DNA of 64,000 nucleotides from Candidatus Wolfebacteria bacterium RIFOXYB1_FULL_54_12 (lineage in GTDB: Bacteria > Patescibacteriota > Minisyncoccia > UBA6257 > UBA9933). This document shows, piece after piece, positions 2,549 through 22,002 of this stretch (position 1 is the first letter of the stretch; every line of letters starts with the position of its first letter). Location: positions 106,508 through 170,507 of the forward strand of contig MGIT01000001.1 in the NCBI GenBank assembly GCA_001793895.1, in the 5' to 3' direction. The position numbers and the translations under genes were made by a program. Below the pieces are notes generated by a model, which was not told the DNA's origin, searched no databases, and saw only the letters and a list, made by a program, of their open reading frames with translations.

Positions 2549-5014
2549 TTATTTTGCTTTCTTGGCAAGTGCCGCCTCCTTCTCCGCGATAGCCATCGTA
2601 GTTTTTACCACCGTGTCGGGATTAAGCGAAATGCTTTCAATACCCGCTTCTACGAGAAACTGGGCAAAGTCCGGGTAATCGCTTGGTGCCTGTCCGCAAA
2701 TGCCGATATATTTCTTGCGGGCGATACACTTAGCAATCACATCCTTGATGAGTGTGGTTACTGCTTCATCCTTTTCGTTGGTGATATATTTAATCTTTTC
2801 ATTGCCGTCACGATCGATACCCACTGTCAGCTGGGTCAGATCGTTCGATCCAATACTCATGCCATCAAACACATCAAGAAACTTATCTGCCAAGATGACA
2901 TTTGCCGGGATTTCGCACATGACATAGGTGCGAATGCCGGTCTTTTTGCCAAGGCCGTTCTTTTCCATAATGGCAAGATTCTTTTTGCCTTCCTCGACGG
3001 TACGGCAAAACGGGATCATGACATGCACATTGTCCAAGCCCATAGCCTCGCGCACCTTTTTGATTGCCTTCAGCTCAAGCACGAATGCATCGGCAAAATC
3101 CGGATGATAATACCGCGAAGCCCCGCGCCAGCCGATCATCGGGTTTTCCTCCTTCGGTTCATACAGCTCACCGCCGATCAACGTACGGTATTCATTCGTT
3201 TTAAAATCGGAGAAACGTACGATGACCTGCTTCGGATAAAATGCCGCGCCGATCTTCGCAATGCCATAAGCAAGCTTATCGATATAGAACTGCACCTTGT
3301 CGTCGTAACCGACGGTCTTTTTGTCGATCTCGCCGACGATCTTCTTGGCGACCTTGTCGCCTTTCTTTGCCTGCGCCTGCAATTTCTTGTAGTTCAGCAA
3401 TGCGTTCGGGTGGATGCCAATCGAAGATGCAATGATGAATTCTTCACGTGCCAAACCAACGCCGCCATTCGGAAGGAACGATTTTTCAAACGCCGTATCC
3501 GGAGTCGCAATGTTCATCGTAATCTTTGTCTTCGTCTGCGGGATCTTTTTTACGTCATGCTCGCGCACGCTAAACTTCTTTGCGCCATCATAGACATATC
3601 CTTCGGTCCCTGCCGTATCAACGGTGACCAGCTTGCCGGTCTTGAGCTTTTTAGTCGCGTCAAGGCTGCCGACAATACACGGAATGCCGAGCTCGCGCGA
3701 CACAATGGCCGCATGCGATGTGCGCCCGCCCTTGTCGGTCACGATCGCGGAAGCGATCTTCATGATAGGCTCCCAATCCGGATCGGTCATGTCGGTCACC
3801 AACACTTCGCCCTGCTTGAACTGGGTAATATTCTTTACATTCATGATCATATGCACCTTGCCAGTCGCGATCTTGCTGCCCACGGAAATGCCCGTGACGA
3901 TCGGAGTGACCTTTTCTTCGAGCACATATTCCTTGACCTTGGTGAGGTCGCGTTCCGCGTGGATGGTTTCCGGTCGCGCCTGCACGATGAACAATTCACC
4001 GGTCTTGCCGTCGCGCGCCCATTCCATATCCATCGGAGTCCAACGATTGTGTACCTTGGTGTAGTGATCTTCGATCAGCACACCCCACTTTGCCAACTGC
4101 AAAACTTCCTTGTCATTCAATACAAATGAATTGCGCTCCTTCGGGCTTGTTTTTACGATCTTGGTCGACTTGGCACCCACGGACGTCGAGGTCATATAAA
4201 CCATTTTCGCATCCTTCGGCGCAAGCTTCTTGTCGATCACCGGATCCATGCCTCCGTTTTTGCCCGCCATCATCTCCTTCAAGCGCGGCTTGAATACCAA
4301 AAACTCATCGGGGGTCACTTCGCCCTGCACGATCATTTCACCCAAGCCCCACACAGCGTTGACCACGACCACATCTTTGAAGCCGGATTCGGTATCGAGC
4401 GTGAACATGACACCCGAGCTGCCAATATCGGAACGGACCATTTTTTGAACGCCCACGGACAAGGCCACCTTAAAGTGGTCGAAGCCCTTGTCGACGCGGT
4501 AGCTGGTTGCACGATCGGTAAAAAGTGACGCCATGGCGGCGCGCACGGCAAAAGAAACATCCTTTGCTCCACGGATGTTCAAAAAGGTTTCGTGCTCGCC
4601 GGCAAACGAAGCACCCGGAAGATCTTCGGCGGTCGCCGAAGAACGAACGGCAACATCTACATTCTTGCCGTATTTCTTTTCCATTTCACGATAGGCGTCT
4701 TCGATCTGCTTGCGCATATCGGCCGGAAACTCGGCTTTTTTGATCGCCTCGCGAATGAACTTGCACTTTTTCTGCAGTTGCGGAATATTCTTCGAATTAA
4801 GGTCCTTTAATGTGTCCTTGATCAACTTCTTCAAACCGGTCTCTTCCAAAAAATCGCGATAGGCTGTTGCCGTTACGATAAAACCGCCCGGGATGTTTAC
4901 CCCCTGCGGAACCAAGTGTTGTAGCATTTCGCCAAGCGATGCGTTTTTACCTCCAACCTCGCCGACATCATTGATGCCGACTTTGTCCATTTTCAGTGTA
5001 TATGATTTCTGCAT
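2549..5014 (-). CDS. ppsA: Phosphoenolpyruvate synthase (pyruvate, water dikinase)
   Basis: Motifs seen: VGGKNASLGEM, the phosphohistidine swivel TDKGGRTSHAAIVSRELGIPCIVG, and GSNDLTQ in the PEP-utilizing domain. The start may be the second Met (MDKVG). Confidence 0.93.
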   Translation of the reverse strand: MQKSYTLKMDKVGINDVGEVGGKNASLGEMLQHLVPQGVNIPGGFIVTATAYRDFLEETGLKKLIKDTLKDLNSKNIPQLQKKCKFIREAIKKAEFPADMRKQIEDAYREMEKKYGKNVDVAVRSSATAEDLPGASFAGEHETFLNIRGAKDVSFAVRAAMASLFTDRATSYRVDKGFDHFKVALSVGVQKMVRSDIGSSGVMFTLDTESGFKDVVVVNAVWGLGEMIVQGEVTPDEFLVFKPRLKEMMAGKNGGMDPVIDKKLAPKDAKMVYMTSTSVGAKSTKIVKTSPKERNSFVLNDKEVLQLAKWGVLIEDHYTKVHNRWTPMDMEWARDGKTGELFIVQARPETIHAERDLTKVKEYVLEEKVTPIVTGISVGSKIATGKVHMIMNVKNITQFKQGEVLVTDMTDPDWEPIMKIASAIVTDKGGRTSHAAIVSRELGIPCIVGSLDATKKLKTGKLVTVDTAGTEGYVYDGAKKFSVREHDVKKIPQTKTKITMNIATPDTAFEKSFLPNGGVGLAREEFIIASSIGIHPNALLNYKKLQAQAKKGDKVAKKIVGEIDKKTVGYDDKVQFYIDKLAYGIAKIGAAFYPKQVIVRFSDFKTNEYRTLIGGELYEPKEENPMIGWRGASRYYHPDFADAFVLELKAIKKVREAMGLDNVHVMIPFCRTVEEGKKNLAIMEKNGLGKKTGIRTYVMCEIPANVILADKFLDVFDGMSIGSNDLTQLTVGIDRDGNEKIKYITNEKDEAVTTLIKDVIAKCIARKKYIGICGQAPSDYPDFAQFLVEAGIESISLNPDTVVKTTMAIAEKEAALAKKAK

Positions 5015-5142
5015 ACGATAGGATTCTTAAAATGTAATTTCTTATTGGTGTATGCGCCCAGTATACTACAATCAAAACCAAAAAAATACCCCAAATCATG
5101 GGATATTTTTGTCGAATTTGGCGATCATATTCAAGGCAACGG

Positions 5143-5436
5143 TCATTCCGCAGAATTTCCATCCAGTTGGCCAAAATGTTCTTTTGTGGCTCCGCAACTT
5201 GCGCATTCGGCCGGCGATTCGTCGGAAAGCTCCACGCGACCGCACGCATCGCACTCCCAACGCTTCTTATGGCGCGGTATGTGCTCCTCGGATACATATA
5301 CGCTTCCCAAAGGCTCAAACTCGAGCTTATTGAATTCCTCGCGCAAAGCGCCACAGTTCGGACATTCCGCAGGCGGCACCATGCCGTTATAGACATGACC
5401 GCATTTCTGACATTCCCATCGTGCAAGAGTTTCCAT
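5143..5436 (-). CDS. Tandem rubredoxin-like zinc-ribbon protein
   Basis: Two copies of a W-E-C-x2-C-G ... C-x-x-C-G pattern are present: WECQKCGH..CPNCGA and WECDACGR..CASCGA. Confidence 0.7.
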   Translation of the reverse strand: METLARWECQKCGHVYNGMVPPAECPNCGALREEFNKLEFEPLGSVYVSEEHIPRHKKRWECDACGRVELSDESPAECASCGATKEHFGQLDGNSAE

Positions 5437-6834: not shown

Positions 6835-7473
6835 TCAGAAAAGTGCACGAAAGATCCGGTCGCGCATCTTCCTATCGTCAAGTGCGATGACTTCTTCATA
6901 CAGCGTTACCAGATCATAGACCAGCTTGGCCCGATCGGTATACAACCGAAGGTCTTCGATGCGCCCGGCAGATACCATGCATTGCCCGCTCGCGGTAAAC
7001 GATGCCCGTGCGGCACTTTTTACCATGGCCAAGGTTCCGCACTCGCCTTGCATGCACTCAAGTTCATGGACCTTGTACGGAAAGCACTCGGAATGAAAAT
7101 CGCTTGCCTGAAACGCACTTTGCCCCGGATCATGCCGGATGAACTTGAATGCCTTCCCGTTTCCGGTGTAAAGAAATTTGATGTTTCCCGCGGTATCGGC
7201 CGGCGAGCTGCTCAAAGCGCCGCCGGTAAACACCGTGATGGCGACGTTGGTCGCAATACACGCTTTACCCTGACGCTCGACCGTCATAACCGTGCGTATC
7301 ACATCCGTCCTGCTTGCCCACATGGATATGGGCGTGATCGCGGCACCATTACGCAACCGCTGTCCGATCGCACGGCGGGTAAGCATTTCGATACTGCTCA
7401 ATCGCTGGGGGCTGGGATTGCCCCGCGCAGTCGCGCGCAATATCCTGCACACTCCATCCAATAAACTCTGCAT
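6835..7473 (-). CDS. Hypothetical protein (212 aa from the internal Met)
   Basis: The start MQSLLDGV at 7473 is preceded by gagaggagga. No family was recognised. The gene is visibly GC-richer than its neighbours and has shadow ORFs on the opposite strand. Confidence 0.55.
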   Translation of the reverse strand: MQSLLDGVCRILRATARGNPSPQRLSSIEMLTRRAIGQRLRNGAAITPISMWASRTDVIRTVMTVERQGKACIATNVAITVFTGGALSSSPADTAGNIKFLYTGNGKAFKFIRHDPGQSAFQASDFHSECFPYKVHELECMQGECGTLAMVKSAARASFTASGQCMVSAGRIEDLRLYTDRAKLVYDLVTLYEEVIALDDRKMRDRIFRALF

Positions 7474-7586
7474 CGACGATTCCTCCTCTCTTTCGGATTC
7501 CGTGATACTGAATATGTAAACAGAACTGCACCTATTTAACCCCACAATTATGTAAAAGTCAATAATAATCGTTTTATAACAAAAAA

Positions 7587-7613
7587 AGGGTTCCCTCACA
7601 GAATCCTTTTTTG
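7587..7613 (-). terminator. Terminator downstream of the tRNA-like RNA
   Basis: The stem agggttc/gaatcct contains one G-T pair. The loop is cctcaca, with A and T runs on both sides. Confidence 0.65.
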
Positions 7614-7631
7614 TTTATTCAAATCCCTTTC

Positions 7632-7783
7632 GGTGCCGCGGGAGGGAGTTGCCTACAAGTCTCGCTTCGCCGCCGCTCAGCGAGCTCGCAGGCCGCCCCT
7701 CGCGATGTGCCCTGCTGGGCCGCATATCGCTGCGGTCTTAAACTCCCCACGCGGGCAAAGCAGTTTGCCCGCTCCACGGCACC
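7632..7783 (-). ncRNA. Candidate 152-nt structured, tRNA-Phe-derived tRNA-like RNA (identity unknown)
   Basis: The 3' end CAACTCCCTCCCGCGGCACC is identical to the tRNA-Phe 3' end. The 5' GGTGCCGTGG pairs with the 3' CCGCGGCACC over 10 bp. GGGAGTT pairs with AACTCCC. Internal hairpins are GGGCAAA-CTGC-TTTGCCC, CCGCA-GCGATA-TGCGG and CTCGCT...AGCGAG. Confidence 0.45.
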
Positions 7784-7790
7784 AACCAGA

Positions 7791-7826
7791 TAAAAATAAA
7801 AAACATACTCCTCACAAGTATGTCTT
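7791..7826 (-). terminator. Terminator after tRNA-Phe
   Basis: The stem is acatact/agtatgt with loop cctcaca, followed by a T-run on the minus strand. Confidence 0.7.
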
Positions 7827-7850
7827 TTATTTTATTCAAATCCCTTTCGG

Positions 7851-7922
7851 TGCCGCGGGAGGGAGTTGAACCCCCGACGCTTGCCTCTTCAGGGCAACGC
7901 TCTACCGCTGAGCTACCGCGGC
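7851..7922 (-). tRNA. tRNA-Phe (GAA)
   Basis: Reverse complement: GCCGCGGTAGCTCAGCGGTAGAGCGTTGCCCTGAAGAGGCAAGCGTCGGGGGTTCAACTCCCTCCCGCGGCA. The anticodon arm is TTGCC-CTGAAGA-GGCAA. Confidence 0.9.
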
Positions 7923-7990
7923 TTATACACCTATTCAAGATGTGCAATCATTATACATGGTTGGAATTTTTTTTCAATCCCAATCCCCTG

Positions 7991-8022
7991 TTATTGGTTA
8001 TAGGTTATTAGTTATTGGTTAT
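7991..8022. repeat. GGTTAT-type low-complexity repeat
   Basis: The sequence ttattggttataggttattagttattggttat lies between tRNA-Phe and tRNA-Pro. Confidence 0.8.
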
Positions 8023-19408: not shown

Positions 19409-21829
19409 CTAATAAGTCGAATAGGCGTAGTCAAACACGGCATGAGCTACTGTCTCTAAACTTTTAGCACTACATTTATCGAGCGTATCGCCAGTCGTAT
19501 GATATGGCGGGTATTCAAAATCAATCAACAGGAAACTCGGAATTCCAGCTCGATTGAGCGGGGTGTGATCATCTTGGACACTTTGCCCAACCTTATCTTG
19601 AAAAACGTGGCTGTCCACTTTTTGCGCAATACTCCAAAATGCGTCCGCTTGAGACTGGGCATTTTGCACGGATGATTGCTCCTTGTAAATTCTCAAGTCT
19701 TTATCGCACACCATATCAAGAACAAGTGCGGATACCGGTATATTATTCCCATAAAGTTCGCTCAAATGTTCGGAAAAATAAGTAGAACCGAGAGGTCTCC
19801 AATTGCTATAATCACTGCCTTGATTTATATCTCCCTCTTCTCCATCAAAGAAAACGATGTCCACGCCAACACTCGGTATCACATGAGAATTGCCGAGTAT
19901 CCGCGCTAATTCCACAAGGACGGCAACACCCGAAGCAGAGTCGTTGCCCCCTGGCACTGGTTGATCTTTGTATACGTGATCCTTATCCGCAAGTTTTTTA
20001 CTGTCATAATGTGTCGCTAAAATAATGCGCCGTTCTTGGGTTGGGTATAGACGGCCTATGATATTCGATAATTTATGGATTTTACCGTCTGTCCCTTTGT
20101 AATCCCACGATTGTGTAATTACTTCGTTGGTTTGTTCTTTCATCTCCGCAATTAGAAATTTCTGCACGTTTTCATGCCCGGGTGCGCTCATGTGGCGCGG
20201 CCCATACCTTAGTTGTTGGTTTATCACGGCAAGCATTTCGTTGCCATCAATAAACGGTTTTTCCTTAAAAGTACGCCGGAGAACTTCGGACGTTAAGTAC
20301 TCAACCGGAGAAAAATTGTCGGTGAGAATTGGGTATGGAGACAAATTAAATCTGTCCAAGTTGATAACTTTATTTCGAAGCGAGCTAATGATTGAGTTCT
20401 CATTTTGCAGAATTGAAGCCGCGCTCAAATCAATTTTTTTATTACCATTCCATCCAACCAAAATAATATTTTGGGAATCTGTTTTTCCGGGAGTTTCAAC
20501 CGCAAAAAAATAACTATTTGGAAAAACACTTTGAAAAGTTTTTATCTCCGCAAAAATAAGAGATGGCTCTTGTCTTGATAAATCTCCGATTAAATTAGCG
20601 ATAAACAATCCATCGTCAGATAATTTCTCTTTTGCGATGGTAAAAAATTCCTGCGTTGTAAAGTGAGCAGGAATGGAAAAAAGAGAATGGTACGCATCGC
20701 TAAATATAAAATCATATTTTTTATTCGAATCCCAAAGCAGGCGACGACCATCTTCAGTATAATTGTATAGATTTGAATTGTCTTCTACGGCAAAATATTC
20801 TTTTGCTAATGCCAATAACGATGGTTCAATTTCTGAAACATCGAGTGTCGCGTTTGGCAACTCCGCTAAAAGGGCCTTCGGTATAGAATATGCGCCACCG
20901 CCTATAACTAAAGCATTTCGTACGTCCGGCTTGAAAACTTTGTAGAGAGAATAGTATTTCGTGTATTCATAAACGAGATCGGCCGGGTTATCCGAATCGA
21001 GAAACATCGCACCGGAACCACTCCGATCCTGTTGAAAAAATCTTGTCGGCCTGCTTTCAAACATACCATCGTAGATGGTGATTTTTTCGTAAATACCATC
21101 TTTGCTGTACAATACATCGCCTTTTGTTTGCTGAACCGCAACAATGGTAATAAGGGCTAAAGTGACAACGGCAACCAAAGACTGGGTTAGGCGTTTTTTG
21201 TCAAAACCAAATACCGTAAGTGGGATAAATCCGAGAAGGAAGAGAACAACTCCTGTGGCAATAAAAATATGGTCTATGCCAAAATTAGGTATAAGCACAA
21301 AACCCGCAAGTAGACTGCCAATGATACTCCCCAGAGTAGACCAAAAAAATATTTTACCCGAAACACTTCCCACTCCCTGCTCTGGTGCTTGAAGACTCTG
21401 TAATTTTATAGCATAGGGCGACAAAGTGCCGAGCAATAACGCAGGAACAAGGAACAGCAGCAAAGAAGAGATCAGTGGTCCGCTTGTAAGTGAAAGATTT
21501 TTGCTTAAAATTGGAAGAATTATCAAACCAAAAAAATGAAATACAAGGACAAGAAGACCGCTTACGAGAATTATCCCGAAGAACCACCGTAACGATGGGT
21601 GACGATCTGCAAATTTTCCGCCCACATAATATCCTATGCTAAGAGCTGCGAGTATAACACTTATTATACTTGATACAGTAAAAATTGTGTTTCCATAGTG
21701 AGGCGAAAGGACACGGACGGCAACGACTTCAATAATCAAAACACACGCCCCAGTGATAAATACTGAGATTGGCAGCAAATTTTGCTTTAAAAATTTGTTC
21801 ATGTATTTAATCATGGTAGCAGTTTGCAT
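19409..21829 (-). CDS. Fusion protein: polytopic membrane spermidine-synthase-like domain plus M28 peptidase/glutaminyl-cyclase-like domain
   Basis: The N-terminus has about 7 TM helices. The SAM-fold motif is ALVIGGGAYSIP. The C-terminal M28 motifs are ATHYDS, GGNDSASGVAVLVELARIL, FFDGEEG and DDHTPL. Confidence 0.8.
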   Translation of the reverse strand: MQTATMIKYMNKFLKQNLLPISVFITGACVLIIEVVAVRVLSPHYGNTIFTVSSIISVILAALSIGYYVGGKFADRHPSLRWFFGIILVSGLLVLVFHFFGLIILPILSKNLSLTSGPLISSLLLFLVPALLLGTLSPYAIKLQSLQAPEQGVGSVSGKIFFWSTLGSIIGSLLAGFVLIPNFGIDHIFIATGVVLFLLGFIPLTVFGFDKKRLTQSLVAVVTLALITIVAVQQTKGDVLYSKDGIYEKITIYDGMFESRPTRFFQQDRSGSGAMFLDSDNPADLVYEYTKYYSLYKVFKPDVRNALVIGGGAYSIPKALLAELPNATLDVSEIEPSLLALAKEYFAVEDNSNLYNYTEDGRRLLWDSNKKYDFIFSDAYHSLFSIPAHFTTQEFFTIAKEKLSDDGLFIANLIGDLSRQEPSLIFAEIKTFQSVFPNSYFFAVETPGKTDSQNIILVGWNGNKKIDLSAASILQNENSIISSLRNKVINLDRFNLSPYPILTDNFSPVEYLTSEVLRRTFKEKPFIDGNEMLAVINQQLRYGPRHMSAPGHENVQKFLIAEMKEQTNEVITQSWDYKGTDGKIHKLSNIIGRLYPTQERRIILATHYDSKKLADKDHVYKDQPVPGGNDSASGVAVLVELARILGNSHVIPSVGVDIVFFDGEEGDINQGSDYSNWRPLGSTYFSEHLSELYGNNIPVSALVLDMVCDKDLRIYKEQSSVQNAQSQADAFWSIAQKVDSHVFQDKVGQSVQDDHTPLNRAGIPSFLLIDFEYPPYHTTGDTLDKCSAKSLETVAHAVFDYAYSTY

Positions 21830-21889
21830 ATGATTAGTCTATCCGCCATTGTATTTTTTAAGCGAGGACTATTTTCAAAATATTTCACA

Positions 21890-21934
21890 AAAACAAAGAC
21901 CACGCATTTTAATGCATGGTTTTTGTTTTTGTGG
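21890..21934. repeat. 45-bp direct repeat, right copy; also the terminator hairpin after tRNA-Ala
   Basis: The sequence aaaacaaagaccacgcattttaatgcatggtttttgtttttgtgg overlaps the last 3 nt of tRNA-Ala. Confidence 0.85.
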
Positions 21935-22002
21935 ACCTAGGCGGAATCGGACCGCCGTCTCAGCAATGCGAATGCCGTGTTCTACCACTAGACTATAGGC
22001 CC
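21932..22002 (-). tRNA. tRNA-Ala (CGC)
   Basis: Reverse complement: GGGCCTATAGTCTAGTGGTAGAACACGGCATTCGCATTGCTGAGACGGCGGTCCGATTCCGCCTAGGTCCA. The G3:U70 identity pair is present, and the anticodon loop is TTCGCAT. Confidence 0.88.

Follow-up and report, generated by a model that had tools for sequence, protein, structure and literature searches.

Small structured RNA elements that end in a copy of the neighboring tRNA or tmRNA 3' end form a widespread, apparently undescribed family, mostly in bacteria of the Candidate Phyla Radiation

Several described systems are bound up with the genes or the shape of tRNA and transfer-messenger RNA (tmRNA). The primer-binding sites (PBS) of retroviruses and long terminal repeat (LTR) elements and the Mauriceville retroplasmid represent tRNA-primed or tRNA-tagged retroelements, tyrosine-integrase islands and prophages occupy tRNA and tmRNA genes, and a number of RNAs mimic part of a tRNA. 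Group I introns are common in the tRNA genes of Patescibacteria and related phyla, and they also occur in the T-loops of tmRNA genes (PMC13011429, PMC11915505). Here we describe an RNA element of 152 nucleotides (nt) that lies behind the tRNA-Phe gene in a 64,000-nt stretch (the window) of Candidatus Wolfebacteria bacterium RIFOXYB1_FULL_54_12 (contig MGIT01000001.1, positions 106,508 to 170,507; groundwater metagenome). Its 3' end is a copy of the 3' end of that tRNA gene, and it belongs to what is apparently an undescribed and widespread family of small structured RNA elements, found mostly in bacteria of the Candidate Phyla Radiation (CPR). Positions given below are those of the window, and the features of this locus are on its minus strand.

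The host gene, an intact tRNA-Phe(GAA) without an intron, was placed at 7849 to 7922 by ARAGORN and at 7851 to 7922 by Rfam (RF00005, 68.5 bits), and a promoter scan found a sigma-70-like promoter for it at 7977 to 7950 (TTGAAA-16-TATAAT). A sequence-only reading of the window had reported that the 3' end of this gene is duplicated, and the duplication is exact. Repeat copy R1 (7831 to 7868) comprises C56 to A73 of the tRNA by the ARAGORN and Rfam placements (i.e., the last 18 nt, starting in the T-loop) plus 20 nt of 3' trailer, and it is identical over 38 bp to repeat copy R2 (7614 to 7651), which contains the 3' strands of two helices of the element (P2 and P1) plus the 20-nt trailer. The similarity extends to 44 nt at 95%, none of 100 dinucleotide-preserving shuffles contained such a match, and the window holds no third copy of the repeat. 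The insert at this tRNA-Phe gene amounts to 179 bp. The upstream partner of R2 is not a tRNA, as the same reading had stated: ARAGORN and Rfam match only 7849 to 7922, and no cloverleaf of a tRNA or tRNA pseudogene was detected over 7632 to 7783 (ARAGORN; Rfam at E ≤ 10).

The element occupies 7783 to 7632. A covariance model of the family (model R1) finds exactly one match in the window, which is full length (7630 to 7789, 165.3 bits, E = 5.7e-43), and neither BLAST nor a filter-free cmsearch revealed a second copy there. The predicted fold has a free energy of -97.6 kcal/mol (z = -7.8 against 200 shuffles) and contains the pairings that had been proposed from the letters alone: GGTGCCGTGG pairs with CCGCGGCACC over 10 bp including one U.G, GGGGAGTT pairs with AACTCCCT, and three internal hairpins are enclosed. 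Read 5' to 3', it begins with the 5' strand of helix P1 (GGUGCCGUGG, followed by A; 7783 to 7774), after which come the 9-bp hairpin HP1 (GCGGGCAAA-CUGC-UUUGCCCGC, then GU; 7772 to 7751) and the 5' strand of P2 (GGGGAGUU; 7748 to 7741). A first invariant junction segment, (U)AAGACCGCA (7739 to 7731), is identical in 26 of 26 seed sequences and leads into hairpin HP2 (7730 to 7702; 3 bp, an AU bulge, 8 bp, and the loop AGCA), and a second segment that the seed alignment shows to be invariant, GAGGGGCG (7701 to 7694), leads into the long hairpin P3 (GCCUGCGAG/CUUGUAGGC; 7693 to 7651). P3 has two conserved G.U pairs, a bulged A, a 6-bp variable stem, and an apical loop flanked by GA/GA, and it ends in GUAGG|C56. 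All bases from the C at 7651 onward belong to R2, so that the 3' strand of P2 (AACUCCCU, then C; 7650 to 7643) is T-loop positions 57 to 60 plus the 3' strand of the T-stem, and the 3' strand of P1 (CCGCGGCACC; 7641 to 7632) is the acceptor 3' strand with the discriminator and CC. The T-stem-like pairing is offset by 2 nt from the real T-stem and reaches into the T-loop. In the window copy, HP2 differs from that of four relatives (L003, L011, L021, and L016) by one additional G and by a G-to-A change, which create a bulge and a C.A mismatch; both changes weaken the hairpin in comparison with all relatives, and this copy may thus be slightly degenerate.

To place the element in a wider context, JGI metagenomes were searched with a degenerate 19-mer, and GTDB species representatives were scanned with a pattern that joins the two invariant junctions across a gap. 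The metagenome search returned copies from Wolfebacteria and one locus (L016) with an 82%-identical core behind a tmRNA gene (RF00023). The 3' end of the L016 element duplicates that of the tmRNA (CAACUCCCUCCAUCUCCACA), and the 5' end of the element (UGUGGAGAU) pairs with this new 3' end, so that P1 covaries completely with the host gene. The genome scan matched 108 stretches, of which ~85 are true elements, and since it demanded exact junction motifs, the family must be larger and more diverse than this count. Model R1 matched 95 + 12 = 107 times in the collected loci. By record labels, which can be wrong for sequences that come mostly from metagenome-assembled genomes (MAGs), the 80 loci listed comprise ~17 from Saccharibacteria, ~35 from other Patescibacteria/CPR, 5 from Elusimicrobia, 10 from unclassified "bacterium" MAGs, 3 from "Gammaproteobacteria" MAGs, and 1 from a "Nanoarchaeota" MAG, together with 9 chance matches in GC-rich genomes. 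The conserved module consists of HP1 and a three-way junction with invariant AAGACCGCAG, CGAGGGGCGGCC, and GUAGG, and the window copy presents the whole series of HP1, P2, AAGACCGCAG, HP2, CGAGGGGCGGCC, P3, and GUAGG|C56 followed by the copy of the host 3' end. Its family membership and architecture are near certain.

Searches of Rfam 15 gave nothing over the window element even at E ≤ 10 (7450 to 8000 yielded only chance matches outside or across it), and none of 30 related loci had a match over the element at the gathering score. We found no published description of the element, including by searches with sequence strings, within a literature coverage that was partial and does not prove novelty.

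Two divergent copies, which we refer to as type 2 (L077, 6093 to 6253; L088, 1003 to 1166), carry AACGACGGAG / GAGUCGGUGCC instead of AAGACCGCAG / GAGGGGCGGCC, and their existence indicates that the family is broader than the motif scan shows. These changes are compatible with a pair between the two junction segments (C-G to A-U or G-C), and such a junction-to-junction pair (columns 57 to 94 of alignment A3) is hinted at by the two type 2 copies only. Two other structural ideas were dropped. Pseudoknot pairing of the HP1 loop CUGC with the invariant GCAG is unsupported because the loop varies while GCAG is constant, and the pairing of GAGGGG with CUCCCUC in the minimum free energy structure of the single sequence is not general, since R varies while GAGGGG is invariant.

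The fold was evaluated on a plain MAFFT alignment of 26 copies, in which 88.0% of cells were paired, a value that none of 500 shuffles reached; the shuffled alignments had 69.6 ± 0.7%. In this alignment, 42 of the 53 pairs showed changes on both sides, and controls in which the partner strand was slid gave 32 to 45%. RNAalifold independently recovered HP1, P2, HP2, and P3. With 95 model-aligned copies, 90.5% were paired versus 65.0% in shuffles, although this alignment (A4) was fitted to the model structure and hence leans towards it. The share of paired cells was 98% in HP1, 97% in HP2, 94% in P3, 90% in P2, and 73% in P1; all 9 pairs of HP1 had changes on both sides. G.U pairs outnumbered A.C pairs (315 versus 106), and the two G.U pairs of P3 are conserved in ~75 of ~85 sequences, which together indicate that the folded strand is the transcript sense, i.e., the sense of the tRNA. 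Judged from these comparisons, selection acts on the fold, and it does so in the sense of the tRNA. The structured, tRNA-like RNA of the sequence-only reading, here a mimic of the acceptor and T-stems, is supported, and both conservation and covariation are strong among the relatives.

Because indels misregister P1 in the MAFFT alignment (62% paired), P1 was tested by comparing its fit to its own host with its fit to other hosts. At least 7 contiguous pairs were formed with the own host in 33% of cases and with other hosts in 9.8%, and the corresponding values for P2 (at least 8 contiguous pairs) were 47% and 15%. P1 covaries with the host gene in L016, L053, L085, and L118, and P2 is nearly universal among the copies.

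Nearly all copies stand behind an intact tRNA or tmRNA gene on the same strand. A same-strand tRNA lies upstream of 64 of the 85 elements, representing 14 amino-acid types, with a median of 62 nt (12 to 178 nt) separating the end of the tRNA from AAGACC. The gene upstream is a tmRNA in five loci (L016, L064, L086, L088, and L127) and an intron-containing tRNA in three (L066, L067, and L098), while six elements are cut by contig ends and five have no assigned host. At least nine elements are followed by another same-strand tRNA within ~35 nt, indicating that these sit inside tRNA operons. The boundary between module and host copy is fixed. The element side always ends in GUAGG (rarely GCAGG or GUGGG), the host copy starts at C56, and the host gene reads U55|C56. 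A conserved helix of the RNA ends exactly where the repeat begins. Exact repeats of 11 to 75 nt were found in 41 elements, with the mode ending 0 to 2 nt past the tRNA end.

Modules comprising HP1 and the core are 85 to 94% identical behind different tRNA types, with unrelated R segments; examples are Val(gac)/Ser(tga) at 93%, Val/Met at 91%, Glu/Arg at 90%, and Asp/Pro at 92%, the last within one MAG. Tandem arrays occur in L085, L120, L123, and L118. In L088 (1547 to 640), a single tmRNA is followed by three units that each end in the tmRNA 3' end, namely, a type 2 element, a hairpin-plus-R unit of unidentified kind (~930 to 860), and a type 1 element. Together with truncated copies and an empty site (see below), the near-identical modules on different tRNAs and the tandem arrays show that the module moves. 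In some copies the 5' strand of P2 fits the presumed donor better than the current host (L056 versus L114), which means that adjustment to the host comes after insertion and proceeds by ordinary compensatory change. The occurrence of one module behind many tRNA types and tmRNA in about 80 species also implies an imported unit, of which only the last ~20 nt and the trailer derive from tRNA-Phe in the window.

Close relatives illustrate how the site changes. Syntenic loci were found via the contigs that carry homologues of the protein encoded just downstream of the element (212 amino acids, 6835 to 7473). This protein lacks any Pfam domain, and a search of 5.8 billion proteins yielded only six clusters of homologues, all in the same synteny; its gene is kept whether the element is present or absent. 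Intact elements stand behind tRNA-Phe in L003, L021, and L011 (92.8%, 85.5%, and 76% identical to the window, respectively). HP1 is fully compensated among them, reading GCGGGCA/UGCCCGC in the window, ACAAGUG/CACUUGU in L011, and GUGGGCA/UGCCCAC in L021, and the same is true of the 8-bp stem of HP2 and the inner stem of P3. L013 represents an empty site, with tRNA-Phe, a single terminator, and then the protein gene, while L014 (36.8 bits with model R1) and L012 retain only 5' remnants. That close relatives have lost or shortened the element speaks against a function essential to the host. When L013 is compared with L021, the inserted block consists of a copy running from C56 through the trailer and terminator, followed by the 5' part and core of the element. 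The R copies are identical over 34 to 38 nt including the trailer within each lineage, and the trailers differ across lineages, which is concerted evolution.

Some observations at these loci concern other sequences. A group I intron of ~230 nt interrupts tRNA-Phe(GAA) at position 33/34 in L003 (3105 to 3336), L021 (~4956 to 5186), and L012 (1070 to 1314; RF00028, 59.8 bits), and ARAGORN missed these intron-bearing tRNAs. Since the window tRNA-Phe lacks the intron, it is polymorphic in this lineage; an intron at 33/34 of Phe(GAA) has been listed for a Patescibacteria genome (PMC13011429). An open reading frame (ORF) of ~230 amino acids between tRNA-Pro and the intron-bearing tRNA-Phe in L012 (324 to 1016) and L021 (~4700 to 4870), which is not in the window, might be related to the intron or to a mobile element. 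Several independent metagenome assemblies (L001, L002, and L007 to L010) end at or inside the element and its repeat, near window positions ~7560 to 7860, and assembly breaks there fit a repeat or a strain-variable site.

Each repeat copy is followed by a terminator-like hairpin. Hairpin A (7833 to 7793), found by an inverted-repeat search between tRNA-Phe and the element, has the stem ACAUACU/AGUAUGU, the loop UGUGAGG, and a U-run, and relatives have homologues of it with other stems. Hairpin B (7612 to 7582; scored on the plus strand), 3' of the element, has the same loop, which is CCTCACA in the DNA as read forward and UGUGAGG in the RNA sense in both hairpins, and a different stem. The common loop and different stems that the sequence-only reading had pointed out are thus real; the stem of B has one A.C mismatch on the RNA strand, and homologues of B pair better in L011 and L014. 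Across the window, L003, L011, L013, L014, and L021, these hairpins are paralogues: all have the loop UGUGAGG(AG), whereas the stem comes in three types that differ by compensating changes. Lineages also differ in the order of the types (A then B in the window, B then A in L011, and a third type, C, alone at the empty site of L013). Elsewhere in the window, 20001 to 22000 has a GC content of 0.40 compared with ~0.50 in other parts, adjoins tRNA-Ala(CGC) at 21931 to 22002, and may be a small island, in which the element model found nothing significant (13 bits).

The overall picture that we favor, at somewhat better than even probability, is that of a nonautonomous mobile RNA gene that exploits tRNA operons by mimicking the top half of a tRNA. 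What the data show is a nonautonomous RNA element that spreads by duplication and completes its fold with the borrowed 3' end of its host gene, giving a helix like the acceptor and T-stems in which the invariant three-way junction takes the place of the T-loop. The unit combines an element-borne module (an optional P1 5' strand, HP1, the P2 5' strand, and the junction core) with a duplicate of the host 3' end that runs from C56 of the T-loop and often includes the trailer and terminator. Transcribed in the tRNA sense, presumably with or just after the host tRNA, its 5' strands would pair with the borrowed 3' segment into a coaxial helix resembling the acceptor stem and T-stem, with the conserved junction in the place of the T-loop. 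The tRNA operon would then supply transcription, 3'-end formation, and probably end processing, and the invariant junction could be the functional payload, either a protein-binding site or a catalyst. The module spreads duplicatively between tRNA genes and amplifies in tandem, probably anchored on the conserved T-loop sequence, and P2 and P1 would afterwards be tuned to the new host by compensatory change. One conceivable route is microhomology-mediated template switching or recombination with a switch back at a CGAAUCC-like sequence, which would explain why the junction of core and C56 is fixed while the outer end of the repeat varies; another is an RNA intermediate.

Several observations weigh against this mobile-gene interpretation. 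No mobility enzyme turned up when ORFs near the ~85 copies were clustered. Exact and degenerate element patterns had 0 matches in IMG/VR, a gapped pattern had 3 that model R1 all rejected, and blastn searches tuned to distant matches found nothing among INPHARED phages or PLSDB plasmids; absence from these virus, phage, and plasmid collections means that no vector is known. A promoter scan gave no convincing candidate immediately 5' of the window element, and as hairpin A separates tRNA-Phe from the element, transcription from the tRNA promoter would need read-through. P1 of the window copy sequesters the discriminator and CC, unlike a normal substrate of RNase P or the CCA enzyme, and P1 is well formed in only about one third of the copies. 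The loss or truncation of the element in L013, L014, and L012, the bias of the 95-copy alignment, and the fallible taxonomic labels belong on the same side of the balance.

We also speculate, as a rather unlikely extension, that the invariant three-way junction represents a small module of a new kind, catalytic or guided by RNA, that acts on the U55|C56 bond in the T-loop of tRNA and tmRNA. The 5' strands would guide it to the last 20 nt and the duplicated 3' segment would serve as donor, so that the module would swap or repair tRNA 3' ends or, with no protein of its own, write itself behind tRNA genes via an RNA intermediate.

Much of the same evidence can be read as that of a host-beneficial, vertically inherited noncoding RNA of tRNA operons that duplicates only occasionally and acts as a decoy or titrator of enzymes or toxins with specificity for the acceptor/T-arm half of tRNA and tmRNA, or as a regulator of tRNA 3' maturation. 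A core that is invariant across phyla with conserved G.U pairs, the embedding of copies among same-strand tRNAs, the divergence of the Wolfebacteria tRNA-Phe copy in step with its flanks (92%, 85%, and 76%), and the maintained identity of the two R copies within each lineage would all be expected of such an RNA. Its absence or truncation in L013, L014, and L012, the tandem arrays, the near-identical modules on unrelated tRNA types, and the frequent lack of P1 would not, and we regard this explanation as unlikely, if less so than the other alternatives. Improbable, and slightly more so than the catalytic extension above, is a retroelement resembling a short interspersed nuclear element or a retroplasmid, in which an RNA with a split, PBS-like complement to the last ~20 nt of a tRNA is copied by a reverse transcriptase (RT) supplied in trans and a hybrid cDNA of the module plus tRNA 3' end integrates at the tRNA locus by homology. 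The Neurospora Mauriceville retroplasmid does integrate through hybrid tRNA cDNA, the 5' strands of P2 and P1 together complement tRNA positions 57 to 75, the element is nonautonomous, and the duplication of the host 3' end in some cases extends as far as the terminator (repeats of up to 75 nt). The distribution of the element (CPR and one Nanoarchaeota MAG) also parallels lineages rich in the RTs of diversity-generating retroelements. Selection for the cis helix explains the complementarity to R equally well, however, no RT lies near any copy, and poly-A-like or variable 5' truncation signatures are absent beyond a few remnants. Group II introns, moreover, are reported to be absent from Patescibacteria (PMC13011429).

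The T-loop origin of the repeat had suggested the footprint of an integrase to the sequence-only reading. The part of this proposal that stands is that the identity block marks an insertion event; the idea that ~180 bp are the remnant of a larger element is not supported, because the conserved unit of ~150 nt is complete in itself and neither an integrase nor another recurrent gene goes with it. A miniature integrative element of the cis-mobilizable element (CIME) type, moved by a tyrosine recombinase or similar enzyme acting in trans near the T-loop, with P1/P2 as a possible folded attachment (att) site, would account for a direct repeat with its start inside the T-loop of genes for tRNA and tmRNA (the classical target class of integrases), for the L088 units stacked behind one tmRNA like tandem islands, and for the clean insertion seen between empty and occupied sites. 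It is less probable still, given that about 85 loci have no adjacent integrase, the unit measures only ~170 bp, 14 tRNA types plus tmRNA are far more than any single integrase targets, the element was not found on phages or plasmids, and the covariation is strand specific (G.U three times A.C) and extends through hairpins that are irrelevant to an att core. Marginally below it we place a small ribozyme with a "3' exon," which would cleave or transesterify at GUAGG|C56 and thereby release the tRNA 3' segment, transfer it to a U55-ending body of a tRNA or tmRNA (trans-splicing or repair), or process a cotranscript. The invariant G on the element side and U55 on the host side match the group I rule (U ahead of the 5' splice site, G as the last intron base), the junction nucleotides and two G.U pairs are conserved, and group I introns populate the tRNA and tmRNA genes of these phyla as noted above; nevertheless, the element matches no ribozyme or intron model, its core is only ~85 nt, and GUAGG|C56 lies within the continuous P3/P2 helices, which is unusual for a cleavage site. 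An intron of the T-loop was rejected as well: removal of the core from palindromic TTCGAA-type copies leaves a loopless perfect palindrome with no T-arm, and the 5' strand complements the T-loop rather than copying it. The idea that the element arose through an insertion that duplicated a 2-bp CG target was likewise rejected, as the window T-loop is not palindromic. The other proposal of the sequence-only reading, in which tRNA-Phe was duplicated locally in tandem and the duplicate degenerated, with loss of the D and anticodon arms and gain of an 85-nt insert in the T-loop, is refuted by the family data and retains almost no probability. It drew on the 38-bp identity, a 7-bp acceptor-like pairing, and short similarities between the 5' half and tRNA-Phe. 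These similarities exist, but they arise only because both sequences are complementary to one and the same 3' strand (AGUU complements AACU and is not a copy of UUCA), the pairing is shifted in register by 2 nt, a global alignment of the tRNA unit with the element shows nothing outside R, and HP1 and the core have homologues (82 to 94%) in other phyla, where the modules follow other tRNAs and tmRNA.

If the favored picture of a mobile RNA gene is correct, a widespread class of structured RNA would be added to the CPR, whose bacteria have very small genomes, and its design would be unprecedented, in that an RNA gene is completed by copying the end of the tRNA or tmRNA gene behind which it lands. 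The family would represent a protein-less element that is mobile across at least 14 tRNA types, and it would also account for some contig breaks and for many of the "partial tRNA" fragments of CPR genomes. Its invariant core may be a new ribozyme or the binding site of a conserved protein, and the covariance model is ready for use in annotating CPR genomes.

Compared with the known families, the element shows the defining feature set of none. No recurrent protein gene was found within 3 kb on either side of the ~85 copies, where ORF clustering gave only spurious ORFs overlapping the element or a tRNA and scattered housekeeping genes. Specifically, no TnpB, IscB, or IS110 ORF recurs next to the copies as would be expected of the omega RNA of IS200/IS605 or the bridge RNA of IS110, and the copies adjoin tRNAs and housekeeping genes instead. 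Like a1/a2 of a retron msr-msd, P1 pairs the two ends of the element, but there is no RT nearby and no Rfam match. Small self-cleaving ribozymes (hammerhead, twister, twister-sister, pistol, hatchet, and hepatitis delta virus-like) gave no match in the window at E ≤ 10 and none at the gathering score in the 30 loci. The group I introns of Patescibacteria, including the T-loop introns of tmRNA (PMC13011429, PMC11915505), share with the element their hosts, gene class, T-loop site, U before the junction, and terminal G; the element, however, leaves the gene uninterrupted, is too small, and has the host 3' part duplicated rather than split, and RF00028 does not match it while detecting real introns in L012 and L098.

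The tRNA-primed retroelements resemble it in their complementarity to ~19 to 20 nt of a tRNA 3' end and in insertion beside tRNA genes with duplication of the tRNA, whereas the element has no linked RT, a complement that is split by a hairpin and pairs in cis, and a bacterial setting. Tyrosine-integrase islands and prophages at tRNA and tmRNA genes are alike in the direct repeat of the 3' end that starts in the T-loop, the intact host gene, and tandem stacking. By the criteria for genomic islands, the flanking direct repeat of the tRNA 3' end is there and an integrase and cargo in the insert are not: the element has ~150 to 170 bp without integrase or cargo gene, its repeat is built into a covarying RNA fold, it uses at least 14 tRNA types, and the searches of phages and plasmids did not find it. 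The tRNA mimics (the tRNA-like domain of tmRNA, YrlA, viral 3' tRNA-like structures [TLS], and mascRNA) gave no match over the element with the Rfam models for YrlA, tmRNA, and TLS; there is no recurrent neighbor gene such as rsr, as for YrlA, and neither ARAGORN nor RF00023 reports a tmRNA over the element, while true tmRNAs are detected upstream of other copies. These mimics nonetheless share with it the stacking of two helices, formed by the 5' and 3' ends, that resemble the acceptor stem and the T-stem, a large attached non-tRNA domain, and a probable dependence on the enzymes that process tRNA ends. What sets the element apart from them is that a three-way junction replaces the T-loop without a D or anticodon arm, and that its 3' strand is a duplicate of the neighboring gene, so that each copy of this multicopy, apparently mobile RNA mimics a different tRNA.

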